From contig CAWJSJ010000002.1 in assembly GCA_963845565.1 (NCBI GenBank), positions 1,248,001-1,312,000 of the forward strand: a stretch of DNA of 64,000 nucleotides. Reading direction: 5' to 3'. This DNA is from an uncultured Methylomirabilota bacterium (GTDB lineage: Bacteria; Methylomirabilota; Methylomirabilia; Methylomirabilales; 2-02-FULL-66-22). The first letter of the stretch is position 1; every line of letters begins with the position of its first letter. The notes under the pieces are model-generated. The model made no database searches. It saw only the letters and a program-made list of their open reading frames with translations, and had not been told where the DNA came from. A program made the position numbers and the translations under genes. Below are positions 2,648-58,708 of the stretch, one piece after another.

Positions 2648-2962
2648 ATGATCTACGAACTGCGTACCTATCAACTTGCCGTGGGCGGGATGGGGGATTA
2701 CCTGGACCTCATCCGGACAAAACTTCTACCCCTGCTCGCCGAGCACGGGATCAAACCGGTCGGCTTCTGGACCACCGACATCGGGACGCTGAACGAGGTC
2801 GTGCATCTGTGGGCGTTCAACGATCTCAACGAGCGTCAGGCGAAGTGGGGGGCATGGTTCAAGGACCCCCGCCGCGCCGAGATCGTGCCGCGCCTGCGCG
2901 CCGCGATCGTCAGCCAGAGCAACAAGATCCTCTCGCCGACCGAGTTTTCGCAGTTGAAATAG
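2648..2962 (+). CDS. NIPSNAP family protein
   Basis: MIYELRTY...NEVVHLW...ILSPTEFS; GAGGAG RBS before ATG 2648. Confidence 0.9.
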   Translation: MIYELRTYQLAVGGMGDYLDLIRTKLLPLLAEHGIKPVGFWTTDIGTLNEVVHLWAFNDLNERQAKWGAWFKDPRRAEIVPRLRAAIVSQSNKILSPTEFSQLK

Positions 2963-3015
2963 AGTACCGAGGAACGGTCGGGCGGATCCCGAATCCAGGT
3001 TGCAGCCACAGATAC

Positions 3016-3048
3016 GAAGAGCCCAGGCCCCCGGGGCTCTTCGTGTTT
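3016..3048. terminator. Probable intrinsic terminator between convergent genes
   Basis: GAAGAGCCC...GGGCTCTTC 9-bp stem followed by GTGTTTT. Confidence 0.6.
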
Positions 3049-3060
3049 TCGGTCCGGATT

Positions 3061-3945
3061 TCAGGCCGCCCGTCGTCGCCCGAGATTCCGCAGAAGCGCG
3101 GCCAGATCCCGAGCCGCCGTCGCGCGCTCGATCCGGGCCACCAGGGCAGCGATCTTCTCGGCGTGAGCGGTCGTCGTGACGGTCGTGGCGAGCTTCAGGT
3201 ACTTCTGATGGATCTCCTCGGGCGTGAGGGGGTTCTCCATCGTGCCCTTGGCGTGATCCACGCGGCAGGCGAGGCGCCGGCCGTCGGTCGTGGTCACCTC
3301 GACGATAGAGGCGTAACGTTCGGGCCAGTGTTTCTCCAACTCCGGGTCGGCTGCCATCCGGGTGTTTTCGCTCAAACGTGCGACTTCGGGGTTCTTCTTC
3401 CGATCCTGCAGGATGTCGTCAATCATCACCTGGCCGAAGACCAGGCCGATGGGGAGGATGTATTGGGCGCAATGGGACTTCAGTTCGTTGTTGTCAATCA
3501 TGTGCTTTCCGGAGGTTGGGAAGCGCAACACGATCTCCCGCACGTCGGCAGCCTTGAGGCTGTGCTCTCGCGCCAAGCTGAGAAGCGCGTCCAGGCCAGG
3601 GTGGGTGAAGGAGCAGCTCGAGTACAGCTTGTACGCGAATTCCGGCAGATAGAAATGGGTTCCCCAGTCGGACAGCGGCGCCTCGGGGTGCCGCTCGCCC
3701 GAGAAGGCGGTAAAGGCGTCGTACTTGCCTTCGAAGGGCGTCGGAGGGCCGCCGAAGCCGAGGGAGGCCGGGTAGGCCGCGGTCGCGCCGTTTCGCGCCG
3801 CCAGGCCCGGATTGAACGGACGGGAGTTCTCCGTGTGATCGCTCGCCCAGGCCAGGAGACCGCACGCCTGCTGCATGGCGAGGCCCAGGGCGATGCCGAA
3901 CTTCGGGGCCTCGAGACGGAACAGATGGCCGGCGGCCGCCGCGGG
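3061..3945 (-). pseudogene. MmgE/PrpD family protein, C-terminal fragment; N-terminal third missing
   Basis: GLAARNGATAA...GFGG, YKLYSSCSFTH and HAKGTMENPLT motifs; similarity ends abruptly next to the element end at ~3950. Confidence 0.8.
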
Positions 3946-3990
3946 GACCGCGCGTGCTGATCTGCGGCCGAGCCGCGGTCCCGCCTCTTT

Positions 3991-4136
3991 CCTGTTGACA
4001 CCCAAGTCCAGGCCGTCGGATACTTCCCATCATCCTGGAGGCGCGGCCTCTCACCTGAAGAGCGCTTCCGGGGCTGACTTCGAGCGGCGGGCCGGGTCCC
4101 TGCCGGCGTTGCGGCGCGGATCGTCGCGCGACTCCC
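3991..4136 (+). mobile_element. IS91-like 3' end (oriIS-like) copy A with outward promoter; terminal motif degenerate
   Basis: TTGACA 3995, GATACT 4019 (18-nt spacer), GATCGTCGCGC 4119. Confidence 0.55.
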
Positions 4137-4173
4137 GGCGGACGGAACCAAATGAATAGCGGAAAGGTGTGTT

Positions 4174-4956
4174 ATGGCTCCTCGGCCTGACGTCGAAAAG
4201 CTTACCGACTACGTGGTCGCCTCCATCGAGGCCGGCAAGGCGGTCGAGAAGCCGTTTTTTCACCTTGAGTTCGATCGCATCTTTCCCGAGGACATCTATG
4301 CCTCGATCATCCGCCTGATGCCGGTTGCGGCTGACTACCGGCCGCTGCCCGGCCGTCGCGGCGCCAACCTGCTGCCCGATGGCTCATCCACCCGCGTCAA
4401 GATCGACCTGTTTCCGGAATACACCCGGCACCTTCAGGGCGAGAAGCGTGCGCTGTGGGACCTCGTCGGCCGTGCGCTCTGCTCCGCAGCGGTGCAGAAT
4501 GCCTTTGTCCGTCGACTCACGCCGGGGCTGGAGCGGCGCTTCGGCGCAGGCTGCGCCGACGTCGGCATGTACCCGATTCCGGTGCTCACACGCGACATTC
4601 CCGGCTACCGCATCACGCCGCATACCGATACGCACTGGAAGGGAATTACGGTGCAGTTCTATCTGCCGCCCGATGCCGCCAACACGAATATCGGCACGAT
4701 CTTCCACGACGTTCTGCCCGACGGCAGCATGCCCAAGGCGACGCAGATGAGGTTCGCGCCCAACTCGGGCTATGCCTTCGCGGTCGGCGACAACACCTGG
4801 CATTCGGCCGACCCGGTCGGCGGCCAAGTGAAGACGCGCGATTCAATCTTGCTGACCTATTTCGTCGATGCCGGCCTGCTGCGCTTCCTGCGCAACCGCG
4901 GCAAGCGCGTCGGCAATTTCGTGCTCAACGAGGTCAAGCACGTCGCGAGGCGGTGA
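4174..4956 (+). CDS. 2OG-Fe(II) oxygenase-like protein
   Basis: HTD...WHS facial triad and downstream RxS (TRDSILL). Confidence 0.7.
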   Translation: MAPRPDVEKLTDYVVASIEAGKAVEKPFFHLEFDRIFPEDIYASIIRLMPVAADYRPLPGRRGANLLPDGSSTRVKIDLFPEYTRHLQGEKRALWDLVGRALCSAAVQNAFVRRLTPGLERRFGAGCADVGMYPIPVLTRDIPGYRITPHTDTHWKGITVQFYLPPDAANTNIGTIFHDVLPDGSMPKATQMRFAPNSGYAFAVGDNTWHSADPVGGQVKTRDSILLTYFVDAGLLRFLRNRGKRVGNFVLNEVKHVARR

Positions 4957-5170
4957 GGCGGCGCTTCGAAACACGCAGGCGATTGGAGATGCGCCGCACC
5001 CGACTTGCTCGCGTTGCGCGCTTGCACGTCGACCTCTCCCCGCAAGCGATAATCCGGGACGGCATGCCTTCTGTCTCCTGGTCCCCTCGTGGTGCCCTCC
5101 GAGTCGTTACGCCTCGTCAGCCGCGTCCCGATGCGCCGGACACCCTCCACCATGGGTGACCCCAGTTTGG

Positions 5171-5330
5171 CCTTGACACCAGCCTCCTGCGCGCCTGATA
5201 CTCCCGCCCGGTGTCCGGGGGGACACCGGGCGGGGCGCGCGGAGGGCAGGGGTCGCGCGACTCCGACGGGCCCGCGGGGCGCCGACAGCCGCATCGTCCC
5301 GCGGCCCCAAAGGCGAACTCCGATCACTCA
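5171..5330 (+). mobile_element. IS91-like 3' end copy B with outward promoter
   Basis: TTGACA 5173, GATACT 5197, perfect 14-bp hairpin 5203-5234, terminal CCCCAAAGGCGAACTCCGATCAC. Confidence 0.65.
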
Positions 5331-5349
5331 TTCCCTTTCTCTTCATGCC

Positions 5350-5538
5350 ATGACACTTATCGGCATCAACCGCTCGATCATCCTGCCCGCGAGCGATTAC
5401 GAATTCCCTGAAACGACGCGCGATCTCGACGATGGTCCGAAGGAGTCCCGTCGGAAGGGTCACCGCAGGGCCCGCTCGAACTCGTTCGGTCTCGGCGGTC
5501 AGAGCACCTGTCTGTGGATAGGCGGATATGATGAGTAA
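5350..5538 (+). pseudogene. Degenerate C-terminal fragment of a beta-ketoacyl synthase
   Basis: ILPASDYEFPE...DLD...SNSFGLGGQSTCL matches the FabF C-terminus. Confidence 0.7.
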
Positions 5539-5568
5539 ACCATCGTCCCTTCGGTCGCTGCGGGGCGT

Positions 5569-6852
5569 GTGATGACCGACCCTGTCGTCATAACGAGCGC
5601 CGGAGTCGTCTGCTCCCTTGGCATCGGCCAGGACGCGGTGTGGGATGCGCTCATCTCAGGAAAGAGTGGCGTCCGCTCCATCGCGGGCTTCGATGCCCGA
5701 GGATTCCGGTGTGCTGCCGCCCAGGTGGTTGACCTGAATAAGGACGAGTCCGGCATCGACCCCCGTGATACCCGTATCATGCGGACCCACTCGTACATGC
5801 TCGGCAAGGCCACGCGCGACGCTTTTACCAATGCCGGGCTTCCCTCCCCGTCTCTCCCGTCGGAGGCAATCGGGTTTTTCGCTGGAATGGGTATGGTCGA
5901 TTATGAGGTCAACGACCTTCTTCCGGCAGTGCTCAAGTCGCTCAACCCCGACCGCAGCATCGACTACGACACCTTTTTTTCGGAGGGATTCCAGGAAATC
6001 CACCCCCTCTGGCCATTGTCGATGCTGAACAACGTCAGTTTCTGCCTGGTTGCGATCGGTCTCGATATTCAGGGCGACAATACGGTGTTCTCCCCCCATG
6101 CGGACTCGGGCGGCCTGAGCGTGAGAGAGGCAATGCTGTCGGTCCGCGAACGGCGATCAGGCATCGCCTTCGCCGCGGGAGTCAGCGAGACCATAAGCCC
6201 CCTCAGCCTCGCGCGCATGAGCCTCGCCGGACTGCTGGCGTCCGGCGACGGGAGCGAGGAGCAGCTTCCTCGGCCGTTCGATGCCGAGCGCACGGGAACC
6301 GTCCTGGGCGAGGGCTGCGGTGTCGTCGGCCTCGAACTCCTGTCGAGCGCGCGCGCCCGCGGTGCCGCGCCGCTGGCGGAACTCTCCGGCGTCGGCGCGG
6401 CCTGTCAACACCAGGACGGTGCGACGAGCCCGACGGCGACGGCAATCGCCGTAGCGATGGAGCAGGCCCTCCGGTCGGCCGGTGTGATCCCGCAGCAGAT
6501 CGACGCGGTCATCGCCCACGGAGATGGCTCACGCGAAGGGGACGCCCGTGAAATCGAGGCGCTCCAGATGGTGTTCTCCGGCGAGATCGGCCGACTTCCC
6601 GTGTTTTCATCCAAGGGATCGCTGGGGCATCTGCTGGCCGCTGCGCCTGTCGTGGACCTGATCACCGGGATCTCGATGTTGACGCACAACACCGTCCCGG
6701 CGACGCTGCATACCCGGCGCCCCGACGCCTCGGTGCGTTTCAATCTGGTGCTCGGCTCCGCATTGCATGCGCCTCTCCACAGGATCATGATCAACTGCCG
6801 GAGTTCGGAGGGCCAGGCAGTCTCGCTGATCATCGAGAAGAGCCTGCGGTGA
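5569..6852 (+). CDS. Ketosynthase-like protein lacking the catalytic Cys (chain-length-factor / FabF-mut type)
   Basis: KS fold motifs (RPFD, LGEG, IAHGDG, SSKGSLGH); PHADSG in place of TACAS. Confidence 0.85.
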   Translation: MMTDPVVITSAGVVCSLGIGQDAVWDALISGKSGVRSIAGFDARGFRCAAAQVVDLNKDESGIDPRDTRIMRTHSYMLGKATRDAFTNAGLPSPSLPSEAIGFFAGMGMVDYEVNDLLPAVLKSLNPDRSIDYDTFFSEGFQEIHPLWPLSMLNNVSFCLVAIGLDIQGDNTVFSPHADSGGLSVREAMLSVRERRSGIAFAAGVSETISPLSLARMSLAGLLASGDGSEEQLPRPFDAERTGTVLGEGCGVVGLELLSSARARGAAPLAELSGVGAACQHQDGATSPTATAIAVAMEQALRSAGVIPQQIDAVIAHGDGSREGDAREIEALQMVFSGEIGRLPVFSSKGSLGHLLAAAPVVDLITGISMLTHNTVPATLHTRRPDASVRFNLVLGSALHAPLHRIMINCRSSEGQAVSLIIEKSLR

Positions 6853-6859
6853 GAATGCC

Positions 6860-7309
6860 ATGAGATTCCTGCTCTTCGATTCAGTCGCGCAGATCACGAA
6901 GGGAAAATCGATCGTCGGTGTCAAGTGTTTTTCCCTGACCGAGGAGTTCCTCAACCGGCATTTCGCACAAACTCCCTCCGTGCCCGGTCCGCTCCTCATC
7001 GAGGCGATGGCGCAGCTCGTCGGGTGGCTGATCATCTACTCCTACGACTTCCGGCTTTCCACTTTCCTTGCACTCGTCGAGGATGTGCGCATCACTCCCC
7101 GGCTGCGTCCCGGTTTCAGCGCCGAGATCCACGGCGAGCTGATCTCTACTTCGAAACGCGATTCGCTCGGAAGGGCGCGCATGGTCTCTGCCGGCAGGGA
7201 GATCGCCTCCGTGGGCCGGATCATCTATGGCCACAGCGACCGGGTCGACCCCGAGGAGCTTGCGAGGCGATTCGCCTATTACAGCGGAATGAGGACTGAC
7301 CAGCAATGA
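6860..7309 (+). CDS. FabZ-like hotdog dehydratase
   Basis: MRFLLFD...HF...PGPLLIEAMAQ. Confidence 0.85.
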   Translation: MRFLLFDSVAQITKGKSIVGVKCFSLTEEFLNRHFAQTPSVPGPLLIEAMAQLVGWLIIYSYDFRLSTFLALVEDVRITPRLRPGFSAEIHGELISTSKRDSLGRARMVSAGREIASVGRIIYGHSDRVDPEELARRFAYYSGMRTDQQ

Positions 7310-8595
7310 ACCGGCGGAAGGTCGTCATCACCGGCCTCGGTCTTGCCACCTGCCTTGGACTCTCGGTCAACGGGAACTGGCGACGCCTGATGAACGGCGA
7401 ATCAGGCATCCGAAGGCTCTCGCATCCTGCTACCGACAGCTCTCTGATCCGCGCTGCGGGTGCGCTCCGTGGCGAGGACTGGCGGACGATCGAAGAGACG
7501 TTTCGGGACGACGCCGCTGCCGGCGAAGAGCGCATGACCCTCCTTGCGCTCTGGGCGGCGCAGGAGGCGCACCAGGATGCCGCCTTGTCCGACGGCACGA
7601 TCGAGCATGGCCGGGCCGGCGTGGCCCTGGCCTCGGAAATCGGCGTCAGCCGCCTGGAGGATGTCGGTCGCTGGGTTGACCCAGACCGCACATTCAACCT
7701 GCTGCGCTTCAGCAGGGAACTGTCAGCCGTGCATCCGGAATCCCTCATGCGGCACGTGTCGCATCGCCCTGCGTCGCTGATTGCAACGAAGTATCGTTTC
7801 TCAGGCATGAACGCGACGGTGACCGCCGCCTGCGCGTCCGCGAACCAGGCGATCGGCATCGGGTACCGTGCGATCCAGCGCGGCGATGCGGACATCATGG
7901 CGGTCGGCGGCACAGCGACGATGATGAATCCCCTCGGGCTGGTCTTCTTCCTCCTGGTCACGGCGGCCTCGACGTCCCGAGACGAACCTGCCGCCATCTG
8001 CCGCCCTTTCGACCGGAAGCGATCGGGTCTGGTCATGGCGGAAGGTGCTGCGGTCGTGATGCTCGAAGAGGAGTCGCATGCCCTGAGGCGCAACGCGAAG
8101 GTCTATGCCGAGGTGGCCGGATACGGCGCGTCGCTCGACGCCTACCGGCTGACCCGGCCGCATCCCGACGGACGGGGGGCCGCGCAGTCCATGATCGCCG
8201 CCCTCCGCGACGCAGGCCTCGGCATCGACGCGATCGATTACATCAACGCCCATGGGACCAGCACGAAGCTGAACGACGTCGTCGAAACGCTCGCGATCAA
8301 GAACGTTTTCGGCGAACGCGCATACCAGATCCCGGTCAGCTCGAGCAAGTCCATGATCGGCCACACGCTCGCGGCGTCCGGCGCTCCCGAGTTCGTGTAT
8401 ACCATCCTGAGCGTTCAGCGCGACGAGATCCACCCGACGATCAATCTCAGCCAGCCGGATCAGAAGTGCGACCTCGATTACGTGCCGAACGTCGGCAGGC
8501 GGCACATCGTGAACGCAGCCCTGACCAATTCATTCGGATTCGGCGGCCAGAACGCGACGATCATCGTGAAGAAATACCGGAAGGAGGACGCATGA
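7306..8595 (+). CDS. fabF: Beta-ketoacyl-ACP synthase II-like (FabF family), catalytic triad intact
   Basis: TAACAS, INAHGTST, KSMIGHT, NSFGFGGQN. Confidence 0.9.
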   Translation: MNRRKVVITGLGLATCLGLSVNGNWRRLMNGESGIRRLSHPATDSSLIRAAGALRGEDWRTIEETFRDDAAAGEERMTLLALWAAQEAHQDAALSDGTIEHGRAGVALASEIGVSRLEDVGRWVDPDRTFNLLRFSRELSAVHPESLMRHVSHRPASLIATKYRFSGMNATVTAACASANQAIGIGYRAIQRGDADIMAVGGTATMMNPLGLVFFLLVTAASTSRDEPAAICRPFDRKRSGLVMAEGAAVVMLEEESHALRRNAKVYAEVAGYGASLDAYRLTRPHPDGRGAAQSMIAALRDAGLGIDAIDYINAHGTSTKLNDVVETLAIKNVFGERAYQIPVSSSKSMIGHTLAASGAPEFVYTILSVQRDEIHPTINLSQPDQKCDLDYVPNVGRRHIVNAALTNSFGFGGQNATIIVKKYRKEDA

Positions 8596-9344
8596 AACTG
8601 GACCTGACCGGGAAGACCGCCCTCGTGACCGGGGGGTCGCGCGGCATCGGGCGGGAGACCGGCATTTTCCTGGCGCAGGCCGGAGCGCGGGTGATCATCA
8701 ACTTCCACCGATCGCGCGACGAAGCCGTCAAGATTCAGGAGGAGATTATCGCCGCCGGCGGTGCAGCCGAGATCGTCCAGGCGGATATCGGGGACCCCCA
8801 GGGAGTCGAGGCGCTCTTCGGTTACGTCAGGAAGGTCTGCAAGCGGCTCGACATCCTCGTAAACAATGCCGGCGTCATCAAGGACAACCTGTTGCTGAGC
8901 ATGGGACTCCCTGATTGGGAAAAGGTTCTCGGCCTCAACCTCCGGGGGGCGTTCCTCTGCACCAAGTTCGCCGCTGAGATGATGTTGCCGAACCATGCGG
9001 GGAAGATCATCAACATCTCGTCTGTGAGCGCGATCAAGGGCGGACGCGGACAGGTCAATTACGCCGCAGCGAAGGGCGGACTCGTCTCGTTTACGCGGGC
9101 ATGCGCCGTGGAACTTGCCGGAAAGGGCATCCAGGTCAATGCGGTCCTCCCCGGCGTGATCGAGACAGAGATGACCGTGCGCGTGCGGAAGCGCGCAGGG
9201 GAGCTGCTGCTCAATGCAATCCCGATGAGAAGATTCGGCACTCCCGCGGATGTCGCCAATCTCGTGGTCTTCCTGGCTTCCGACAAGGCCGATTACATCA
9301 CCGGTCAGACGTTCGTGGTGGACGGCGGCCTAACCGCCGCATGA
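8592..9344 (+). CDS. fabG: 3-oxoacyl-ACP reductase (SDR)
   Basis: TGGSRGIG, NNAG, YAAAK; AGGAGG RBS and ATGA overlap with fabF. Confidence 0.9.
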   Translation: MKLDLTGKTALVTGGSRGIGRETGIFLAQAGARVIINFHRSRDEAVKIQEEIIAAGGAAEIVQADIGDPQGVEALFGYVRKVCKRLDILVNNAGVIKDNLLLSMGLPDWEKVLGLNLRGAFLCTKFAAEMMLPNHAGKIINISSVSAIKGGRGQVNYAAAKGGLVSFTRACAVELAGKGIQVNAVLPGVIETEMTVRVRKRAGELLLNAIPMRRFGTPADVANLVVFLASDKADYITGQTFVVDGGLTAA

Positions 9345-9362
9345 TCATCACCCGACTGGCAC

Positions 9363-11306
9363 TCACCGGCGTCGGCGTTTGGGGGCGCCGGTCTTCGGCT
9401 TTGGGGCAAAGGTCAAGAGCCAGCGGTCGGCCCCTGGCGTCAGCCGCCAGGCCTCGCCCAGGTCGTCCGCGCACAGCATCGCCTCTTCTGCGCTGCCGAA
9501 GGCGTAGGAATCCGGGAGCATTTCGGGCATCTCGGCCCTGCCGGTCAGATACTTGGGGACGTGCCGGTTGATCTTGATCGCTTCGCGCAACCGCTCCTGG
9601 GCCGCCGGGCTATCCCCTTTCTGCCGGAATGTCCACAGGGCCCATCCATACTTCCATATCGCGCTCGCGTCGTCCGCATATTGATCGAGCAGGGCGCCCG
9701 CCTCGGTGTTGTGCCCTGTGATGAGCAGTAACGGGAGCAGGACATCCCGGACGCCTTGGTTATCATTGGGATTGAGGCGGAGTAGTTCCTGGTAGTGGCC
9801 GATCGCGTCGTCCGCCCGTTCCATCTCTTGCAGACAGTGCGCAAGCCCCATCCTTGCCCGCATGTAGGGCCGCGTCGTTCCGATTTCCCAGAAATGGCCG
9901 ACCTGATCCCGCATGATGTCTGGTCCGATGGCACGCTCGCCGGCAGCGATCGCCTGCCGGTAAAGATCGAGTGAGGCTTCGGGGGTGACCGCCTCTTCGG
10001 CCAGCAGAACGTAGGCGTCGGCGCAGTCCGGCGACACCTGCAACGCCTTCCGGGCGAGCTGGATCCGCCGTCGCCCGCGCGAATCGAATGCGCGGTACAT
10101 GAGCTCCTGCGCCTTCTCCAGCGGCGTCGTGGCGGTGGACGGCATCGCGTCCGCGGGGCGTCCGACGAAGCGCTCCTGGATCGCCGCGTTCGCCTCCTCC
10201 ACACTCCGGAAATTGGATGCGGCCATGAACCGCTCGATGTCGGTTGTCACGCGTTCCATGGCCCGCCGGTCGGGGATGCGGCCCGGCCGCGTCTTTGGTG
10301 GTGCGTCGAACGGTTCGAGAAGCTCGGGGAGACACAGCGTGACCGTCTTTGGCCCGTCGGAGGTCCGGACCTCCTTGGACCAGCGGCCCTGGTCCATCTC
10401 GTCCTCGCCGGTCGCCGCCAGGGCCAGCAAGAGGCCCTCCAGATCGGCGAGGGTTCCGGCGTCGGGTCGACGGATCTCTCCGCCGGGGCCGAACCAGACC
10501 GCCACGGGATACGCCTGATCGCCGGCCGCCGGGAGGGCGTGTTCCTCCCACAGGTCAGCGTCATGGAGCGACAGATCCATGATGGGGCCGTACAGAACCG
10601 CCCACTTGCCCCGCTGCTCGAAATACTCTTCGGGATCGCGCGCATCGAAGAGGCTTTCGAAGTCTTCCGGCGTCTCGTAAAAACCCAGCCCGAAGGTCTC
10701 CCCTGCACCGCCGAGTACCGTCAGATGGCGGAGGCCCGCGGCGACCGGACTCTCGACATGGACCAGGTCCTCGTCGGACAGATGCCGCCACGGCGCGGCG
10801 CGATAAAAGTCGCTCGCGGCGGCCGCAAAAGCCCGCACGCGGTCAACCGTCACGCCGGCCCCGTCCATCGCGCCCGGCGGGAGCGGCTTTCCGCTCATGT
10901 GTTCGGCGAGGTGAGCCAGGACGTCCTTGAGGGCGGCGAGGTCCTTGGTCACGGACACGGCGATCCCTGCGTTTACCAGTGCGCCGCGCAAGTACGTGGC
11001 CAGCGCCTCGTCGGCGACCTCGATGCGACTCGGCCGGCACCCGGCCAGTTCTCGCTTGAGGCCGAATTCCAGCAGTCCCTCCAACATCAAGGCGGGCGCC
11101 GGAATGCCACCGCTGGAATCCGACTTCTCGTGCACGATCCCTGTACGCAGGCTGACCCAAAAAGCGCCCCAGGGGCGGTACGGCTTCCCGTCCGGTCCAT
11201 TCTCGACCCAGGCAGGGATTCGAACAGCGCCACCCTGCCACACCTCGGCAGGATTCCGGGGGAGTCGAGCGAATCGGGCGAGCATTTCAGGAGGGATAGG
11301 GCTCAT
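9363..11306 (-). CDS. Conserved hypothetical protein with C-terminal TPR region
   Basis: Long ORF with strong coding bias; LARKAL.SPDCADAY...TRPYMRAR...LNPNDNQGVR TPR-like block. Confidence 0.75.
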   Translation of the reverse strand: MSPIPPEMLARFARLPRNPAEVWQGGAVRIPAWVENGPDGKPYRPWGAFWVSLRTGIVHEKSDSSGGIPAPALMLEGLLEFGLKRELAGCRPSRIEVADEALATYLRGALVNAGIAVSVTKDLAALKDVLAHLAEHMSGKPLPPGAMDGAGVTVDRVRAFAAAASDFYRAAPWRHLSDEDLVHVESPVAAGLRHLTVLGGAGETFGLGFYETPEDFESLFDARDPEEYFEQRGKWAVLYGPIMDLSLHDADLWEEHALPAAGDQAYPVAVWFGPGGEIRRPDAGTLADLEGLLLALAATGEDEMDQGRWSKEVRTSDGPKTVTLCLPELLEPFDAPPKTRPGRIPDRRAMERVTTDIERFMAASNFRSVEEANAAIQERFVGRPADAMPSTATTPLEKAQELMYRAFDSRGRRRIQLARKALQVSPDCADAYVLLAEEAVTPEASLDLYRQAIAAGERAIGPDIMRDQVGHFWEIGTTRPYMRARMGLAHCLQEMERADDAIGHYQELLRLNPNDNQGVRDVLLPLLLITGHNTEAGALLDQYADDASAIWKYGWALWTFRQKGDSPAAQERLREAIKINRHVPKYLTGRAEMPEMLPDSYAFGSAEEAMLCADDLGEAWRLTPGADRWLLTFAPKPKTGAPKRRRR

Positions 11307-11384
11307 GGCTGGGCCTCGCATCTGAGTGAGAGAAATCGGCGACCATTCAACGCGCACATATTCCCCGAGCGGAGAGGATTGGGG

Positions 11385-11627
11385 CTACCGCTCGGTGGAG
11401 CCGATGGGGAGGAATCGGATGCGGTAGCGGGACTCTTCGAGCGAAATCACCGCCCCTCGCGCCGGTGCCACGGTTGATTGCGCAAGGACGGTAGCGAGTC
11501 GATCGATGACGTGCAATGCGCGTGTAATACGAAGACGAAAAACGATCACCTGGACAGCATCATGGCCGCCATCGCGAAGCCATCGGACGACGCGAATATC
11601 AACACCCATGTCCGCCAGAAACCTCAT
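11385..11627 (-). pseudogene. DUF5615 / PIN-like toxin with in-frame internal deletion
   Basis: MRFLADM...GHDAV joined directly to VIVFRL; the central LTxDxDF segment is absent; only 80 aa. Confidence 0.75.
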
Positions 11628-11636
11628 GAACTACCC

Positions 11637-11849
11637 TCAGGATACCCGGAGTTCTTCCTGTGCCGGCCAGGTTGCGTATTCAAGGGCTTGTTGGACATCC
11701 TCATGTTCAAGATCCGGGAATCCTAACAGAATCTCCTCGAGTGGTGCCCTGTGGGCCACCTGCCCAACAATAACCGACACAGGGATCCGCATCCCTCGAA
11801 TGCACGCCCGCCCAAAAATCTGTGGGTCAAATGTTATTCGATCAAACAC
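11637..11849 (-). CDS. DUF433 family antitoxin
   Basis: RITFDPQIFGRACIRGMRIPV...FPDLEHEDVQQALEYA. Confidence 0.85.
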   Translation of the reverse strand: MFDRITFDPQIFGRACIRGMRIPVSVIVGQVAHRAPLEEILLGFPDLEHEDVQQALEYATWPAQEELRVS

Positions 11850-12187
11850 CGTAACCCCCTCTTAACGCCTAGGCATGATGACGGCGGCGCGAAGGAGTAT
11901 ACCATAGTGACCTCTCTCCGTCGTACGCTCCGTCTCTGCCGGCGTCAAAGTTCCCTCGAGCCCTTTCGCGAGCAGAAAAGAACCGCAACGCTACCTGGCC
12001 CAACACCTGCTTTGAGTTGCATCGCGGAGCCCCCTGAGCACGCCTCGCCTCCTTCGGTGCAGTGGGCAACCCAAAACGGAGATGCCGTCGCACGCCCTGG
12101 CTAGCGCTGGGGGGTGGGTGTGCCGTATGCTCAGAGCCCTCGCTTGGCACCCTCCGTGAATAGTTTGCTTCCACCACGGGGGCGGGG

Positions 12188-12430
12188 ATGGTCACCGGGG
12201 CGTACAAGCCGCGCAACCCCAAGGCATCAGCCCTCTACCAGTGCGTGCAGACGCATTTCGCCGCATTCGAGGCGAACTACGCCCGCGGTATCAGGCGCAG
12301 TACGGTTTCTATCGCCCAGTGATCAGCCGGTTCGTCGAGAGATTCCTCACCTGTGGTGATTTCACCAAGGGATTCGCGAGGTTCCGCTGCGACACCTGGC
12401 GCCGGCGCCAAAGAACGAATTCCTTTCACC
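12188..12430 (+). mobile_element. IS91-family transposase N-terminal (zinc-binding) fragment, frameshifted, fused directly to element terminus copy C
   Basis: MVTGAYKPRNPKASALYQCV...RYQAQYGFYRPVI...FLTCGDFTKGFARFRCDT, then GCGCCGGCGCCAAAGAACGAATTCCTTTCAC. Confidence 0.85.
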
Positions 12431-12556
12431 CACCTGATCACCCTGATCGCTTTGGAAGCCGCCCTCGCCGCCGAGCAGGTGAAGCTCCCCCGCGGTTCCG
12501 GCGTGGACGCGGCCGCGGCGGTATATTGCGAGGCGGAGAAGTCCTGTAGATCGTAA
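12431..12556 (+). pseudogene. Probable C-terminal fragment of a class V (serine/alanine-glyoxylate) aminotransferase
   Basis: LIALEAAL...PRGSGVDAAAAVY; no start codon. Confidence 0.45.
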
Positions 12557-12857
12557 GAAGGGCGTACGCCGACAGCCACAGCCTGCAAGGAATTGTGGCT
12601 CTATTGGACATGAGGCGCTGAAAGCCACAGCCGGCCTCACCCGCCGTATTCAACAACAGGGTTCGCGAGTACTGCGGGAATGGCCACATCCCAATGCGCA
12701 ATGCCCAAGGCTGTTGCCACCGGGAAACCACAAGAGCGACAGAGCGTCAGGCGTCGCCAGTCGGTTTGGCCATTTGTACCTTGGCATTCGTCGTGCGTTC
12801 CAGGTGCTTCCCGGATCGTGCGTGAACAGTCCGAGCCAATTGCGTCCGAGCCACCTG

Positions 12858-13010
12858 GCCCTTGACATTGTGTTCCTAAGCGTCAGATACTCCCCCCAGC
12901 ACGTTGGGGACCGCCCGCAAGGCGCGGAACGGCCCTTAGTCAGGCTCCCGAAGCGGTGAATCGACCCCGCGTGGCGCCGGCACCCATTGGCAGCTTCGAT
13001 CACCGTTCAC
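12858..13010 (+). mobile_element. IS91-like 3' end copy G with outward promoter, upstream of the Usp gene
   Basis: TTGACA 12862, GATACT 12886 (18-nt spacer), GGCGCCGGCACCC...TTCGATCAC 13003. Confidence 0.6.
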
Positions 13011-13076
13011 GTGCGATCGGTATGTGATCGGATTCTGCCGGGAGAAGCGCACTAGTAGGCAAGAGGAGGGTCCATC

Positions 13077-13568
13077 GTGTACAGGAATATCTTGCTGCCA
13101 ACTGACGGATTGGGAAAATGTAAGTTCGGAACCTGTCACGGTATAGTCCTGGCCAATGAGCTCGGCGCCAAGCTGACAGCGGTTCACATCACAGGCAGGC
13201 TCAGCGCCCGCGAACTCATGGAGGCCTATCACCCGGACGTACTCTCGAAGCCTTCGGAAGGCAAAGCGGCAAAGGCGGCGCTCGCCGAGGCTGAGGAGGC
13301 GAAACGGGAGGTTTCCGAGAGAGCGCTCGAAGTGGCGAAAGAGATGTGCGCTGCATTCAATGTTCCGTGCGAAACGGTGCGAATCGAGGGCGAATCTCCT
13401 GTGGACGGCATCCTTCGCGTCGCGAAGGAGAAGGGTTGCGACCTCATCTTCATTTCAACGCACGGGAAACCCGGTATCGTTGGAAACCTGTTTGGCACCA
13501 TCGCCACGAAGGTGCTCTCAAAATCGAAGATCCCAGTCCTGATTCACCATTGCGGGGGGCCGAACTGA
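13077..13568 (+). CDS. Universal stress protein (Usp family)
   Basis: YRNILLPTDG...CDLIFISTHG...LFGTIATKVL..SKIPVLI; GAGGAGG RBS. Confidence 0.9.
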   Translation: MYRNILLPTDGLGKCKFGTCHGIVLANELGAKLTAVHITGRLSARELMEAYHPDVLSKPSEGKAAKAALAEAEEAKREVSERALEVAKEMCAAFNVPCETVRIEGESPVDGILRVAKEKGCDLIFISTHGKPGIVGNLFGTIATKVLSKSKIPVLIHHCGGPN

Positions 13569-13599
13569 GGGATCGATCCTTCCCATTCTCCCGAGAGAG

Positions 13600-14072
13600 C
13601 GGGTGGGCGCAGGACCCGGGCCAATCCACCGAAGTCTCGGGCGCTGCCGCAAAGCGTGCCTGGGCGCGCCTGATCACGCAGGTGCACGAAGTGGATCCCC
13701 TGGTCTGCCCGCGCTGCGCGGGGGCGATGTGCTCATCGCGTTCGTCGAACAACCCGACGTCATCGCGAAGATCCTGACCCCCTCGGGCTCTGGCCTGCGC
13801 GCAGGCATAGCCCACCCCTCGCCTTGCTCGCCGCGTAGAGGTAGTTCCTGCTGTTCGGCATCCTCCTCGCCGCGGGCGTTCGCTCCCCGTCGCCCCGGCT
13901 CCCTCCGTTCGCCCTTGACACCCGTCCCCGGTGCACCCGATACTCCCGCCCGGCGGCCAAGGATGCGCGCGCGAGTCGCGATTCGGCACCGCCGGCGAGC
14001 TCACGGGACGGCGAGAGCGCAATCCTCGCGCCGGCGCCAAAAGCGAATTCCTTTCACCAATATCCTATCACC
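13600..14072 (+). mobile_element. IS91-family transposase C-terminal remnant plus 3' end copy D
   Basis: WARLITQVHEVDPLVCPRCAGAM.LIAFVEQPDVIAKIL..LGLW (frameshifted); TTGACA 13915, GATACT 13939; CGCGCCGGCGCCAAAAGCGAATTCCTTTCAC 14057. Confidence 0.88.
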
Positions 14073-14211
14073 GTCCGTGATTTCCACGTCGAAGGCGTCG
14101 CCGCCTCCAAACCGGAAGCCGACCCGCCATTGATCGTTGATGCGGATGCTCCACTTCACCGCAAGTTCGGTCGGTTACTTTGACCGATACACTTCAAGCG
14201 AGGGAATTATC

Positions 14212-15330
14212 ATGGACAGGAAGTCAATAGGGGTTCTGTGCGGAATTTTCGTGGCATTTACATTCTTGACGGCTTCACCATCCTTGACTCAAGTTACTCC
14301 GTCAGGCCTGGTTCTCCCCTACAAAGCGGAATACGGGGGAGGCGACGCTTTCACAATCTCCACCTACGCCGGCAGGGCAGGAGTATTCTCAGCAATAAAC
14401 GCGAGAGACGGAAACAACCCATCCGACGCTCTGCTGGCTCAGAGCTATGGCACGGGCAGGGCAGGACTCTTCCAGGTGAATAATGCAGCCAGTTCAGCCG
14501 CAGCGCTGAGTGCTTCCACCGACGGGAAGGGTCCAGCCATACAGGCTAACGGGGCGTTAGCCGGAGCATTCAACGGGATGGTGTATATGAGTGGCCCCCT
14601 GGGAATAGGAACAATGAGACCCCCAGAGATGTTGAGTGTGCAGGGGGGCATGAGTCTGCAATCAGGCATCAAAATTGATCAGGGAAACACGAATAACGGT
14701 ACTCTTGGTCTGGGCGCGATCGTTTTTGGCGCAGGACAAGAGGGAATTTCATCGAAGCGTTCGGCAGGCGGCAACCAGAACGGAATTGATTTCTATACGC
14801 GCAATACGGCTCGCTTGTCGATCACCCCTTCCGGCCATGTGGGCATTGGGACGTCCAGCCCGAATTCCACTTTGGATGTCGCTGGGACGATAACTGTGCC
14901 ATATCTGATAGTAACTCGTGGCATAAGTAAGCCAAGCGGACACTTCAAAATAGATCATCCCCTGGATCCGCTCAACAAGAACCTGTTTCACTCGTTTGTT
15001 GAGAGTCCGGATATGAAGAACATCTATGATGGAATAGCGACCCTGGATTCCAAAGGAGAGGCGGTTGTTGTCCTGCCGGAGTGGTTCGAGGCACTGAACA
15101 GGGATTTTCGATACCAGCTCACCTGTATTGGAGGCAGCGCATTGGTCTTTATTTCGGAGGAAATCAAAAATAATAGCTTTTCCATAGCCGGAGGCAAAGA
15201 GGGCTTGAAAGTATCCTGGCAAGTTACTGGCATCCGAAAGGACCCTTACGCCAATAAGTACAGGGTACAGGTGGAAGAGGAGAAATCCTCTGGTGAGAAA
15301 GGGCGCTATCTCTATCCCGACGCATACTAG
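14212..15330 (+). CDS. Secreted, AT-richer hypothetical protein with tail-fibre-like GIGT repeats and a C-terminal FKIDHP domain
   Basis: N-terminal signal-like segment; GIGT..P...L.V.G repeats; FKIDHPLDP.NK.L.HSFVESPDMKNIYDG. Confidence 0.75.
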   Translation: MDRKSIGVLCGIFVAFTFLTASPSLTQVTPSGLVLPYKAEYGGGDAFTISTYAGRAGVFSAINARDGNNPSDALLAQSYGTGRAGLFQVNNAASSAAALSASTDGKGPAIQANGALAGAFNGMVYMSGPLGIGTMRPPEMLSVQGGMSLQSGIKIDQGNTNNGTLGLGAIVFGAGQEGISSKRSAGGNQNGIDFYTRNTARLSITPSGHVGIGTSSPNSTLDVAGTITVPYLIVTRGISKPSGHFKIDHPLDPLNKNLFHSFVESPDMKNIYDGIATLDSKGEAVVVLPEWFEALNRDFRYQLTCIGGSALVFISEEIKNNSFSIAGGKEGLKVSWQVTGIRKDPYANKYRVQVEEEKSSGEKGRYLYPDAY

Positions 15331-15417
15331 AAAACGGGGCATGGCTGACATCTGTGGATCTTCATAACGCAATACGTCGCATGATCTGTCCGATCATGGT
15401 AAGGCTTTTCGCTATCA

Positions 15418-15660
15418 TGCCCCGCCAGGCCCGGTTGGATGCCCCGGAGACCCTGCACCATGTGATGGTGTGGGGGCCGGAGCGCCACGTCATCTTCCGG
15501 GGTGACATAGACCGGGAGGACAGCCGTCGCTCGGCGTCCACTCGAGTGCGATCCCGAAGGCGGTCCGACGACGGGCACTGGCCGCCGGAGAGTTGCGGTG
15601 CCTCCTCTCGAATGGCGAGGCGTCATAGGATGCAACGTCCCGTATTCCGTCCCGTATTCT
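15418..15660 (+). mobile_element. Internally deleted RAYT / IS200-like Y1 transposase (MITE-like remnant)
   Basis: MPRQARLDAPETLHHVMV.G.ER..IF..D.DRED joined to a C-terminal LGVHSSAIPKAVRR segment; ends ACGTCCCGTATTCC. Confidence 0.75.
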
Positions 15661-15981
15661 GTCGGGAGAAATCGGACTCATGAGTGCTCCTTGCGAGGAC
15701 GGTGGCGTGGCAGTATGAAGCAGTCGTTTCGGATAGGCACGCAACACGCGCGGGCCAAACGACGCCCCCGCGTCGTCTCGACCTTACTCGTCCGATAGGC
15801 CGGACGACTTCGGTGGGCTATGGACTTGCCGCCGTCTTACCAGCTTTCGCGATTTAGAATACAGGAGTGCTTACCCGTACGCCAGTCCTTCACCAGCGGG
15901 AGGGTTGTCCGAACGTAGCGCACCCATCCCCGTCTGACTACGCGCAGTGTTTGGTGAAGAGCACCTCTTCGCCGTTGGCGT

Positions 15982-20161: not shown

Positions 20162-20258
20162 AACCACAGATTTCACAGATTACACAGATAATGGGGACGG
20201 ATATGAAACGGCCGGCTCCAATCCTCAAGAATCTGTGAAATCTGCGTAATCTGTGGTT
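20162..20258. repeat. Inverted repeat with 9-nt periodic arms
   Basis: AACCACAGATTTCACAGATTACACAGAT ... ATCTGTGAAATCTGCGTAATCTGTGGTT (25/28 complementary). Confidence 0.85.
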
Positions 20259-22275: not shown

Positions 22276-22303
22276 CAAGACCTCCGCGCCAAGAGCCAAT
22301 GGA

Positions 22304-22370
22304 AAACCGACAACCGACAACCGACAACCGGCCAATGCAAATCCGATGGCCCATTGTCGGTTGTCGGTTT
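22304..22370. repeat. Inverted repeat with 7-nt periodic arms (ACAACCG)n
   Basis: AAACCGACAACCGACAA / TTGTCGGTTGTCGGTTT, 17/17 complementary. Confidence 0.85.
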
Positions 22371-22378
22371 GAGGATAT

Positions 22379-22648
22379 TCATTCCGCCGCCTGCGCCGCC
22401 GCCGCTGCCTCCGGCACCTCCTCCAGACGAACGACAATCGCCATGTCCGGGCAGTAGATCATGCAGTTGCCGCAATTGGTGCAGGCCGTGATCTTGTCGA
22501 TCTGCGGCGGACGGATTCCGCGAGAGGTCAGCCGCTCGGCGACCTTGAAGACGTCCTTGGGGCACAGGGCCAGGCAGATGCCGCAACCGTCGGCGCCCTT
22601 GCACAGCGTATCGTTGATCGAGATGATCACCGGCTTCTCTTTTGCCAT
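22379..22648 (-). CDS. korD: 2x[4Fe-4S] ferredoxin, oxidoreductase delta subunit
   Basis: CKGADGCGICLALCP and CTNCGNCMIYCP. Confidence 0.88.
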   Translation of the reverse strand: MAKEKPVIISINDTLCKGADGCGICLALCPKDVFKVAERLTSRGIRPPQIDKITACTNCGNCMIYCPDMAIVVRLEEVPEAAAAAQAAE

Positions 22649-33538: not shown

Positions 33539-33595
33539 TTAGGAGCCGTTACGAAATAACTTGTCCATCTGTTGTCATTTCGTTACGGCTCCTTA
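33539..33595. mobile_element. Minimal MITE-like remnant with terminal inverted repeats
   Basis: AGGAGCCGTTACGAAATAAC / GTCATTTCGTTACGGCTCCT (18/20), flanked by a TTA direct repeat. Confidence 0.55.
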
Positions 33596-33640
33596 TGCCG
33601 TTCCCGAAATTCTCCGGTCAAGTCATTCTTTGACAACGGC

Positions 33641-34756
33641 TCATGCGCCGAGGAGATCCAGCGCTTTCACCAGAGCCTCGACGAAGAAATACTCGCCCCA
33701 CATCACCGACTCGTTGACGCCGAGCCCCTTCCGGATGTGGTAGGCGCCGCGCTTCAAGACCCCCTCCCAGCCGGGCGTGCTGCGGCCCAAATACTCGTCG
33801 CCGGTCAGCGTGTCAAGGATCTGCAGCGCCGTGTCGCGGTACAGCCGGGATTTGGCCCGGAGCGGCGTGAAGGACGCCAGATCCAACAGGCCCGAGGCGG
33901 CGATGGCCGCCGCGCTGCTCTCCGGCTGCCGGTGCGGACCCGTGGCGGCCTCGAAGTCGTTGGGCGGCACGCCGTGGAGCGGTGTGCTGTCAATGTAGTA
34001 GTCCGCGTTCAGTTCGGCCGTCTCCAGGAACCGGCGGTCGCGCGTGTACCGGTAGGCGGTTCCGAAGCCGTAGAGCGACCAGGCCAGTCCCCGGGCCCAG
34101 GAGGAGTCGCCGCGAAGTCCCTGGTGCGTACTCTCGCGCAGAAACTCCCCGGACTCCAGGTCGAAGATGCCCTCGTGGACCGTGGAGCCGTCCCCGCGCA
34201 CCAGGTATCGGCGCGTAGTCAGGCAGTGCTCCATGACGCGGTGTTGCAGATCGGCGTCCTGGGTCTCGCGGGCCGCATAGAACATGATCCCCACATTCAT
34301 CATGATGTCGATGAAGGTGGATTCGGGTCCGATGAAGGAGCTGAGGTATCGCCCCTTCTCCTTGAAGCGGAGGCCCATGGTCTTCCCCGCCTGGATCAAC
34401 ACCGCACGGAGAGTCGCGTCCCGGGTCAGGCGGTACCAGTGGTGGTAGGTGGACATGAAGACGAAGCCGAGGTCGTGCACCTCCCGATCGTGTTGTCGCG
34501 GCTCCAGCGGCCGGGAGTACCGCTCGGCCTGCTGGCGGAACCACGGGTCCCCGGTGCGGATGTGGATCAACCACATCATGCCGGGGAAGAAGCCGTCGCA
34601 CCAGTGCGTCCAGGCTTCGCCCTGATGCTTCCATTTCCCGTCCCGCGTGTACATCGGGTAGAAATCGGGGTATCGCTCGACGGTGTTTCGCACTTGGCGC
34701 CCGGCGAAGTCGAGCGCGTCCTTGAGCGTCGGAATCAGGACAGCCGTGTCGATCAT
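33641..34756 (-). CDS. Glycoside hydrolase family 88 (unsaturated glucuronyl hydrolase-like)
   Basis: [23 protein letters not shown]...SWARG.AW..YG, WGEYFF.EAL. Confidence 0.9.
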
Positions 34757-53815: not shown

Positions 53816-53904
53816 TGGATCCGACCGCCTTTCCATTCTTCGGAAAGTTGTTTTGGAACCTATTCCGGGATCCGTCTGGGTTACCCCAGAGCCGTCCCAC
53901 CTTT

Positions 53905-54086
53905 CCCCTTGACGCCTGCGTCCGGAGTGTCGGATAGTCTGCCCCAGCCTTGGCGCCCCCTTGGGGGGCGGGCGAGGCGCGGCGCCGGTGGCCCCCAGGG
54001 GTGGCGGCGCGGCCGCCGCCCGAATGGTCGCGCCGCCCCGAAAAGCCAATTCCTATCACCATCACCCCGATTCCTATCACCTCACC
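53905..54086 (+). mobile_element. IS91-like 3' end copy E with outward promoter
   Basis: TTGACG 53909, GATAGT 53933 (18-nt spacer); CGCGCCGCCCCGAAAAGCCAATTCCTATCAC 54059. Confidence 0.75.
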
Positions 54087-57194: not shown

Positions 57195-57310
57195 AGGACG
57201 ATACGCTCCGAGGGCCGCCCGATGTGGTCCCCACTGTAGAGGACAGCGCCGAAGGGGCGCTTGGCGGCTCGATCGTCGCGCCGCCTCCAAAAGCAAATTG
57301 ACCCATCACT
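57195..57310 (+). mobile_element. IS91-like 3' end copy F (degenerate -35)
   Basis: GATACG 57200; GATCGTCGCGCCGCCTCCAAAAGCAAATTGACCCATCAC 57309. Confidence 0.6.
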
Positions 57311-58708
57311 TCATTCACTCACCCGGAACGAGCGCTGCGAAGACGGCGGTGCCAGCCGTTCGATGACCCGCATTTCCTTCCATTGTCCTCCCCGGAACCG
57401 GAGATAGAACGACACGCCGAGGAGCGAGACATAGGCCGTGGCGATGGTCCACCCGATCAAGATGCCTCCGCCGAACCCCTCGATAGCGATATACGTCGGC
57501 AGAATCAGCACACCGCCGGAGAGCCCAGCCATCATCAACATGACAAATCGGGTATCACCGGCGCCTTTGAGGGCGGCGGCGTAGACGATCGACAGGACGT
57601 CGAACAAGGAATATAGCGCGACGAACCGGAGGAGCACCGTCGCCAGGCTGCGGATCTCGTCGAAGCTTCCGGGATCGGCCCACAGGGCGTACGGCGCCAG
57701 GAAGACGCCGGGTGCCAGCACGTACAGGAGGGCGACGACCCCCATGTACAACACCGTGATCCGTAGGCCGGAGGTCACGCATCGCTCTGCGAGGCGCGGG
57801 TTCTCTCGACCCAGGTGCTGTCCGACGAGAATCGTGATGGCCATACCCAGGCCCATCATGGGCATGAACGCCAAAGTGTTGATGTTGAACGCAATGTTGG
57901 TGGCCGCCAAACTCGCGGTGCCCAGGCGCCCGACGATCAGGAGGAAGATAGTGAATCCGGCGAGATCCACGAAGAACTGGACACCGCTGGGAAGGCCGAA
58001 GCGGAGGATGCGGGAGAACAACGCCGGATCGAATCGCCAGCCCCGTATAACGTGGAAGCGGCGGTCCTGGTTCTGGCGAAACATGAGCCCGCCGTATACC
58101 AGGAGAGCGGCGACCATTGAGAGGTTGGTGGCGATCGCAGCGCCTCCGATCCCCATCTCCGGGAATGGGCCGGCGCCGAAGATCAACAGATAATCGAGGA
58201 CGATGTTGACGGCAGTGGCGACCAGGTTGGCCCACATGACCGGCCATGTCTCGCCGCGTCCGGAGAAGAAGCCGCTCAGCGCGGAGGCGGCGATGGCCGG
58301 GAACGCCCCCAGGCAGAGGACGTGGAAGTAGATCACTTCATGGCCCTGGATCTCAGGATCGTGTCCGATGAGTCGGAAGAACGGTCCGGCGAGAGGGATG
58401 AGGAGCACCATGAAGATCGTGCCGGCCAGCGCGACATAGAGACCCTGCCACACGGTCGGGCCGATCCGCTCATCCCGCCCCGCTCCGATGTACTGCGCGA
58501 CGAAGGTGCTCACGTAGCCCGCCGTTCCGATGAAAAGGCTCATCAGGGTGTAGTTCAGGATGCCGGCGGGCGTCGAGGCGGCAAGGGCCACGGGGGAGTA
58601 CCAGGCGAGAAAAATACGATCCACGAAATGCTGGAGTGACCACGAGCCGGTACTCAGGATCAACGGGAACGCGATGAGCAGGATCTGCCGGTAGCCACCC
58701 TCGGCCAT
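57311..58708 (-). CDS. MATE family efflux transporter
   Basis: IAFPLIL...VDRIF, AQYIGA, GLPSG, LKGAGDT. Confidence 0.92.
   Translation of the reverse strand: MAEGGYRQILLIAFPLILSTGSWSLQHFVDRIFLAWYSPVALAASTPAGILNYTLMSLFIGTAGYVSTFVAQYIGAGRDERIGPTVWQGLYVALAGTIFMVLLIPLAGPFFRLIGHDPEIQGHEVIYFHVLCLGAFPAIAASALSGFFSGRGETWPVMWANLVATAVNIVLDYLLIFGAGPFPEMGIGGAAIATNLSMVAALLVYGGLMFRQNQDRRFHVIRGWRFDPALFSRILRFGLPSGVQFFVDLAGFTIFLLIVGRLGTASLAATNIAFNINTLAFMPMMGLGMAITILVGQHLGRENPRLAERCVTSGLRITVLYMGVVALLYVLAPGVFLAPYALWADPGSFDEIRSLATVLLRFVALYSLFDVLSIVYAAALKGAGDTRFVMLMMAGLSGGVLILPTYIAIEGFGGGILIGWTIATAYVSLLGVSFYLRFRGGQWKEMRVIERLAPPSSQRSFRVSE

Follow-up and report, generated by a model that had tools for sequence, protein, structure and literature searches.

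Gene capture combined with outward promoters is textbook behavior of ISCR elements. Here, we analyzed a 64,000-nucleotide stretch (the window) of the genome of an uncultured Methylomirabilota bacterium (contig CAWJSJ010000002.1, positions 1,248,001 to 1,312,000), in which seven co-oriented repeats resembling the origin-side (ori) ends of such elements lie beside foreign and truncated genes. IS91-family elements start at oriIS and often miss terIS, with a bottom-strand circle as the inserting form (PMC13181058), and IS801 has ori-side miniatures that are mobile in trans (PMC3189936). For ISCR1, variable co-oriented genes follow oriIS in 84% of 1127 records, and the promoters in oriIS increase downstream expression 13-15-fold (PMC6218425). 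For ISCR28, genes sandwiched between two ori ends have already been described (as cited in PMC12772301); a stack of this kind is therefore not new in itself. ISCR transposition itself "has not been experimentally proven" (PMC13393415).

The system described here works like ISCR gene capture within the IS91 family; it is not a canonical IS91, an ISCR of clade Ia or an integron-like platform. It shares with ISCR1, ISCR2/ISVsa3, ISCR27 and ISCR28 a single-tyrosine HUH transposase, an outward promoter motif, an oriIS that ends about 230-240 nt past the stop codon in TTCCTAT plus four nucleotides, and variable co-oriented genes after oriIS, including ori-gene-ori sandwiches. Unlike these elements, the ends in the window are chromosomal and not integron-linked, 5-15 ends can stand in a row, and the lineage has terminus-anchored suffix tails, for which no ISCR description turned up. 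Features in common with IS801 miniatures and with one-ended transposition of IS91, IS801 and IS1294 are the capture of DNA upstream of the element and ori-anchored pieces that vary in length and are mobile in trans (PMC3189936, PMC13181058). In these three elements there are two tyrosines, the target tetranucleotide lies outside the element and the left ends start at a similar tetranucleotide, whereas the lineage shows no conserved base after its terminus and no common motif at the left junctions of plasmid pIAE1. The tails also recall the "fuzzy" right ends of the HUH transposon Replitron-1, where the variable extra bases stem from DNA downstream of the donor (PMC10288648); in the lineage they are copies of the element's own last bases. 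What appears to be new are these terminus-anchored tails and the pIAE1 array. Among the titles and abstracts searched, none dealt with oriIS suffix duplications or this array, which does not establish absence from print. From the sequence comparisons below, we consider it probable that rolling-circle ends piled up through variable-length, same-orientation re-joining at or near existing ends.

Identity of the element ends

The repeats are origin-side ends of an IS91-family element of the ISCR type, which has a single tyrosine and terminates in AAATTCCTAT followed by CACC. The genome under study (G000; other G-numbers are other genomes) comprises 5.36 Mb and is 98.7% complete. In contig C20 of genome G009, a frameshifted IS91-family transposase gene is followed ~240 nt further on by the same end, in agreement with the initial annotation, which placed the end 3' of such a transposase; the possibility that this IS91 lineage does not carry the end did not hold. 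The layout is the same in a metagenome-assembled genome of Deltaproteobacteria (L048), whose protein scores 174 bits against the IS91 model NF033538 (cut-off 125). An oriIS-type end with the AAATTCCTAT motif lies 3' of the transposase in G009:C20, L048, pIAE1 and G447, and also in IS91 itself.

The lineage transposases carry PF14319 and PF04986 (Y2_Tnp plus the zinc-binding HUH type). They have one tyrosine at the aligned catalytic position, as in ISCR2 and unlike IS91, so the two catalytic tyrosines of canonical IS91, IS801 and IS1294 are not found. Identity to ISCR1 and ISCR2 is only 24-25%, and the ISCR clade Ia model NF052416 gives 125 bits, far below its cut-off of 925. An intact 427-aa lineage protein, P0016, matches both transposase fragments of the window: the N-terminal fragment (12188-12402) at 88/79% and the C-terminal fragment (~13610-13817) at 58-80% in short pieces. 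The pairing of the 13915 end with a transposase C-terminus, and of the 12400 tip with an N-terminus, is thereby confirmed. No intact transposase was found in G000 by tblastn with four intact proteins, which returned three fragments only. Searches of G000 for Y2_Tnp and Zn_Tnp_IS91 gave no match, as did their positive controls; the same Y2_Tnp search did match in 7 of 20 genus genomes.

The terminus of the lineage is TTCCTAT plus four bases. Canonical IS91 ends in AAATTCCTATCGAT before a GAAC target, the oriIS of ISCR1 in TTCCTATACCC (PMC13023784), and that of ISCR27 is printed one base shorter (PMC8894482). No base is conserved after CACC, and the terminus annotated earlier as TCAC actually lies one base further, at TCACC. 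The terminal motif is present in 16 of 20 other genus genomes and 5 of 230 other phylum genomes, with none in the reversed control.

We built a DNA profile from 45 ori ends. Four of these are G000 copies, so some matches arise by construction. The profile matched G000 33 times at an expect value (E) below 0.1, and the reversed genome not at all. It recovered all seven plus-strand copies of the initial annotation (Table 1), which are thus real, with corrections: the copy at 3995 has lost its terminal motif, the terminus of the 12862 copy is degenerate, and the copy placed at 57200 is present but lacks a -35 element. Pairwise likeness is mostly 65-80%, so the copies do not derive from one element, although the 12430 tip and the 14058 end have a rare variant in common (92% over 36 nt). 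The remnant and end at 13570..14058 are 73% identical over 460 nt to the G009:C20 element. The left extent of ends in G000 ranges from 31 nt to more than 450 nt, and the left edge of the first fragment is common to fragments in G009:C32 and G018:C184.

Terminus-anchored tails

We assembled 82 ends (89 motif hits, from which we removed 3 orthologous duplicates and 4 rows that were nested or doubtful). At 19 of these, an exact copy of the end's own last 4-15 bases directly follows the terminus, and 10 have two or more such units, up to 11 units at L023. Controls gave 0.8% of 5000 random sites, 1.2% of 1245 ATCACC sites and 5.6% of TATCACC sites (4/72, some of these being ends). When the assumed terminus was shifted from -8 to +6, tails covered 242 nt at TTCCTAT+4 and at most 67 nt at the 14 other offsets. 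This anchor is the position where IS91 ends before its GAAC target, and it also corresponds to the oriIS end of ISCR1 (PMC13023784). Unit lengths are 4 nt (14 units), 5 (13), 6 (7), 7 (5) and 9-15 (4), all with one right edge. Variant termini reappear in their own tails at L011, L165 and L163, so the copying is local. Related elements in two further lineages (pIAE1 and G447) have such tails too, 7-37 nt long; in G447 the transposase-bearing end is followed by units of 7, 7, 26, 21 and 7 nt. Abortive rolling-circle initiation is the likely origin of the tails, which would thereby fix the nick site.

Multi-copy motif hits in viral contigs were rejected as members of this set. They belong to a different ~250 bp repeat that runs past the motif and has no transposase within 700 nt upstream. 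In IMG/VR contigs L269-L274 and L287-L290 this repeat lies between single genes, in arrays of 35-39% GC; it has the ori-end 17-mer but extends beyond this sequence to terminate in GTT-like motifs, and it looks like an integron cassette repeat. Scans of viral contigs for doubled motifs gave a transposase match at 0 of 132 loci examined.

A young array on plasmid pIAE1

Plasmid pIAE1 (NZ_CP058410) of the cultured Trichlorobacter lovleyi IAE carries, between 162 and 253 kb, 15 co-oriented matches to a 49%-identical relative. The isolate has ten identical full-length transposase genes (one protein accession). Up to AAAAAGCAAATTCCTAT, eleven of the ends do not differ from one another; a TTGACG-type promoter motif lies just inside them, and three have tails (37, 28+13 and 22 nt). 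The lengths shared to the left of the ends are 458, 1673-1674, 1784, 1802, 2080, 2316, 2834 and 3418 nt; in several cases they include neighboring genes, and they show no common left motif. We read these flanks as products of one-ended capture. One-ended insertion, proposed initially for the window, is thus seen in the lineage through this array and is not shown for the window's own units. The pIAE1 array is a young version of the window stack.

The genes between the pIAE1 copies include reductive dehalogenase, cobalamin, selA, tat and chromosomal-type genes. Across NZ_CP058410.1:162000-253000 (L192, L211, L212), ~90 kb is split into blocks, with yicC-gmk-nadD and uvrB pieces among them, and class 1 integron remnants adjoin the array. 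At one junction, with a uvrB-like gene, the four bases after TTCCTAT stand in place of an expected conserved tyrosine codon, so they came with the element; in this one case, compared with one homologue, the four terminal bases (CCCC) are not target-derived.

Clustering and orientation of the ends

For the 24 G000 ends at E<=1e-3, 13 have a neighbor within 6 kb, compared with a mean of 1.2 and a maximum of 9 in 5000 simulations. The clustering noted initially is therefore upheld; the copies are not randomly oriented and scattered but clustered and mostly co-oriented, though dispersed ends exist. Co-oriented neighboring ends recur in G004, G005, G009, G018, G251, G286 and G447, and G000 has one opposed pair, 5.9 kb apart. 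In G447, a 241-nt ori piece lies 4.2 kb past the transposase-bearing copy and is 99.6% identical to it, and neighboring ends are 95% alike in G018 (119 nt) and G251 (60 nt). By GC skew, 20 of 24 ends follow the leading strand, a bias that we rejected as proof of fork targeting because it is not significant once clusters are merged.

As a separate observation, the same toxin-antitoxin-like pair follows two end variants, at G000:C1:683842 (L018) and at L058, with junctions 5-8 nt apart, which suggests repeated events at one site.

The outward promoter motif

The initial annotation also proposed an outward promoter, and a predicted one (TTGACA-N18-GATACT) indeed starts at 3995, 5173, 12862 and 13915. 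Promoter-like sites number 6, against 2.4+/-1.5 in shuffled sequence. By itself the motif does not identify an end: several of the weaker matches in the genome consist of the promoter only and could be ordinary promoters. For 11 of 22 G000 ends, a co-oriented start that has a ribosome site lies within ~140 nt, compared with 13% of 1500 control positions, using crude gene calling. An end also lies just upstream of the same, presumably katG-like, gene in L071 (G014) and L156 (G020), where it is possibly a long-kept promoter.

The window locus and its cargo

The ends are followed by unrelated genes, as first described, and this cargo is either foreign or cut mid-gene (Table 1); the termini at 5328, 12430, 14058 and 54060 all run into cut genes. 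The MmgE/PrpD gene breaks off 10 nt before the first end fragment. It is full length (open reading frames of 447-551 aa) in all six relatives' loci examined, and its missing part has no tblastn match anywhere in G000. The protein at 4174..4956 has no Pfam or NCBIfam match, falls in Atlas clusters with PF13640 at 0.93-0.94 and has named relatives from Xanthobacteraceae at 81%. For the 5569..9344 cluster, the matches listed from 20 genus genomes are only 64-71% paralogues. The aminotransferase label comes from our own reading of the C2:1377962 paralogue and not from a library match. Matches to the Usp protein at E<=1e-20 occur in 2 of 120 other phylum genomes and 0 of 6 genus genomes, and the GC contents of the Usp gene and the secreted-protein gene compare with 64-67% in the flanks. 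The secreted protein annotated directly after 14058 is present, but a cut toxin-type 3' fragment, presumably HigB-like, stands before it.

Table 1. Element ends, native genes and cargo in the window (KS, ketosynthase; 2OG, 2-oxoglutarate)
Feature	Coordinates	Strand	Evidence or remark
Profile match, copy 1	3984-4134	+	E 9e-6
Profile match, copy 2	5154-5333	+	E 2e-14
Profile match, copy 3	12373-12435	+	E 9e-4
Profile match, copy 4	12855-12936	+	E 9e-4
Profile match, copy 5	13872-14064	+	E 6e-28
Profile match, copy 6	53885-54064	+	E 3e-16
Profile match, copy 7	57254-57299	+	E 1e-6
MmgE/PrpD gene, 5'-truncated	3061..3944	-	Pfam; ~170 codons lost
Degenerate ori-end fragment 1	3954..4150	+	Promoter motif 3995-4024; terminal motif lost; profile match
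Intact foreign gene, 2OG-Fe(II) oxygenase-like (lead only)	4174..4956	+	Start 23 nt past end
Ori end 2	5154..5328	+	Promoter motif 5173-5202; terminus ...CCGATCACT; near-copy tail CATT next
Cut 3' tail of KS gene	5333..5538	+	tblastx/blastn to fabF-like paralogues
KS, FabZ-like, KS, FabG-like cluster	5569..9344	+	No end to its right
TPR/DUF6930 gene, native	9363..11306	-	Syntenic in relatives
DUF5615/DUF433 gene pair	11385..11849	-	Partly common to G004 and G013
Broken left element part, transposase N-terminus (ATG 12209)	11995..12399	+	74% to G004:C137; P0016 match
31-nt ori tip (terminus 12430) and tail CACC	12400..12434	+	Profile match
Cut 3' tail, aminotransferase-like gene	12435..12550	+	74% to end of paralogue at C2:1377962
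Ori end 4	12851..13004	+	Promoter motif 12862-12891; terminus degenerate
Intact Usp gene, 57% GC	13077..13568	+	PF00582
Transposase C-terminal remnant and full ori end 5	13570..14058	+	Promoter motif 13915-13944; terminus 14058
Imperfect tail (14059-14072), then cut 3' piece of minus-strand gene	14059..14155	+	83% to intact toxin-antitoxin pair, G005:C29
Foreign predicted secreted protein, 52% GC	14212..15330	+	No family match; no end to its right
Second, orphan TPR gene start	15660..15682	-	Right edge of segment missing from G009
Ori end 6, terminus 54060	53885..54086	+	Three-unit tail (6, 15 (imperfect) and 5 nt), then cut gene
Ori end 7, terminus 57310	57254..57323	+	No -35; short tail units

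The TPR gene inside the interval is native, which divides the locus into two sub-islands (3954-9344 and 11995-15659), each with an element remnant first and a last cargo gene without an end on its right. The two TPR gene starts (11285-11307 and 15660-15682) differ, one being G013-like and the other G009-like, which suggests a hybrid of two locus alleles. The MmgE-TPR-sucD interval differs in every relative compared; among nine relatives' loci a clear end occurs in G009 only, with a weak promoter-only match in G004, and G009 is without 11308-15659.

Contigs of other studies bridge 2911-5152 (X3), 5122-5805 and 8907-10135 (X8), and 12916-13892 (X17), so the junctions in these four stretches are not assembly breaks, a possibility raised at the outset. 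For 12430 and 14058, no bridging contig was found among the pieces listed. Cover is low over 11212-15567 in X8 and over the fatty acid synthesis (FAS) genes in X3, with no contig joining across. The X17 contig is RNA; such contigs cannot show a start, and DNA may be present. A joint 5178>13931 (X1, X3) was rejected as the loss of a unit: one side is 25 letters long, 10 other letters lie between, and we read it as another end copy.

No intact transposase or integrase was found among the open reading frames of the island. An integron-like array would have a dedicated recombinase and a fixed site at both ends, whereas here cargo is cut mid-gene and the terminal cargo is unbounded. The proposal of a dedicated cassette platform is therefore not supported, given also the divergence of the copies and the many solitary ends, and it is further weakened by the variation of the interval in relatives without an end there. 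Because G000 has no intact transposase, the action in trans suggested initially would lie in the past. The system is likely dead in G000, and the window stack is a mosaic in which several element variants came together at a site that was variable already.

Other repeats in the window are a high-copy element of ~105 bp (33539-33643; well over 100 other places in G000), a multi-copy short remnant at the right edge of the island (15387-15521; no family match), which we take to resemble the start of a REP-associated tyrosine transposase, and intergenic hairpins made of short tandem units (20162-20258 and 22298-22383).

Mechanism and alternative explanations

In the mechanism that we favor, the transposase would start at the fixed ori end and stop at variable points, and the copy would be re-joined, with its orientation kept, either directly at an existing end or a few kb beyond it. 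The bottom strand would be nicked at the terminus, and the free 3'-OH extended by n bases and then re-ligated. Small n would give the shortest products (4-37 nt), the tails; larger n, via circles or recombination between copies, would give co-oriented units and termini fused to mid-gene DNA. The predicted outward promoter would drive the next gene and thus favor the keeping of ends before newly arrived genes.

Several observations weigh against this mechanism. Apart from the 12430/14058 pair, the ends in the window are not near-copies of one another. Neither the relatives nor the outside contigs provide an empty/filled allele pair at a terminus of this locus, and gain or loss of units exactly at the terminus, which a strain comparison might have revealed, was not seen there. 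After merging of clusters, the leading-strand bias is 12 of 16, compared with 65% for long genes, so co-orientation is partly expected. In the wider set of 69 ends, no more than 20 have a co-oriented gene start nearby. An exact tail is absent from 63 of the 82 ends, and tails are much rarer among the motif hits of the G251 phylum sample (3/29) and occur in only 1 of 30 rows in G251-G253. Finally, the bases after TTCCTAT in pIAE1 are TCCT in seven and TGAC in four otherwise identical copies, and these two forms also fit a target-site model.

The strongest alternative is that unrelated ISCR-type elements inserted independently at a tolerant site, that the foreign genes arrived by other routes, and that recombination and deletion removed most of the elements while the ends survived as promoters. 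The divergence of the window copies, the variability of the interval in relatives without ends and the open right side of each sub-island all fit such a history, as does the report that most genomic IS801 fragments stem from reorganisation and not from one-ended transposition (Bardaji 2011, PMC3189936). It leaves unexplained the terminus-anchored tails, the near-identical neighbors a few kb downstream and the variable captured left flanks of pIAE1, and we regard it as unlikely.

Less plausible still, the tails could be products of replication slippage, or of the heptamer simple repeats of the order, seeded by the C/A/T-rich terminus and independent of the transposase. The degeneracy of some long tails (L002, C2:786490) and the elevated TATCACC control point in this direction, but unit lengths show no peak at 7, all units share one right edge, and two other lineages, whose terminal bases differ, have units of 13-37 nt; we consider slippage improbable. 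A structured non-coding RNA, made from the end and guiding the transposase, would suit the conserved promoter motif ~145 nt inside the terminus and ahead of a GC-rich stretch, but can be set aside as highly implausible, with a mean folding z-score of -0.07 over 27 ends, no consensus structure, one Rfam match that is due to chance, and a -35 in pIAE1 only ~60 nt from the terminus.

Implications

Re-joining at or near existing ends thus remains our preferred explanation. On a broader level, we propose, tentatively and with some reservation, that a widespread ISCR-type lineage builds self-extending capture arrays whose tails tally transposase activity and map the nick site, pIAE1 being a live 15-unit example that has gathered dehalogenase and cobalamin genes. 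ISCRs are considered responsible for the gathering and expression of catabolic and resistance genes. The terminus-anchored tails would allow the nick site to be predicted from sequence and the activity of the enzyme to be followed at low cost. T. lovleyi IAE, with its ten identical transposase genes, provides a cultured substrate for a direct test. The window would represent the worn end state of such an array, in which promoters and foreign genes remain after loss of the enzyme.

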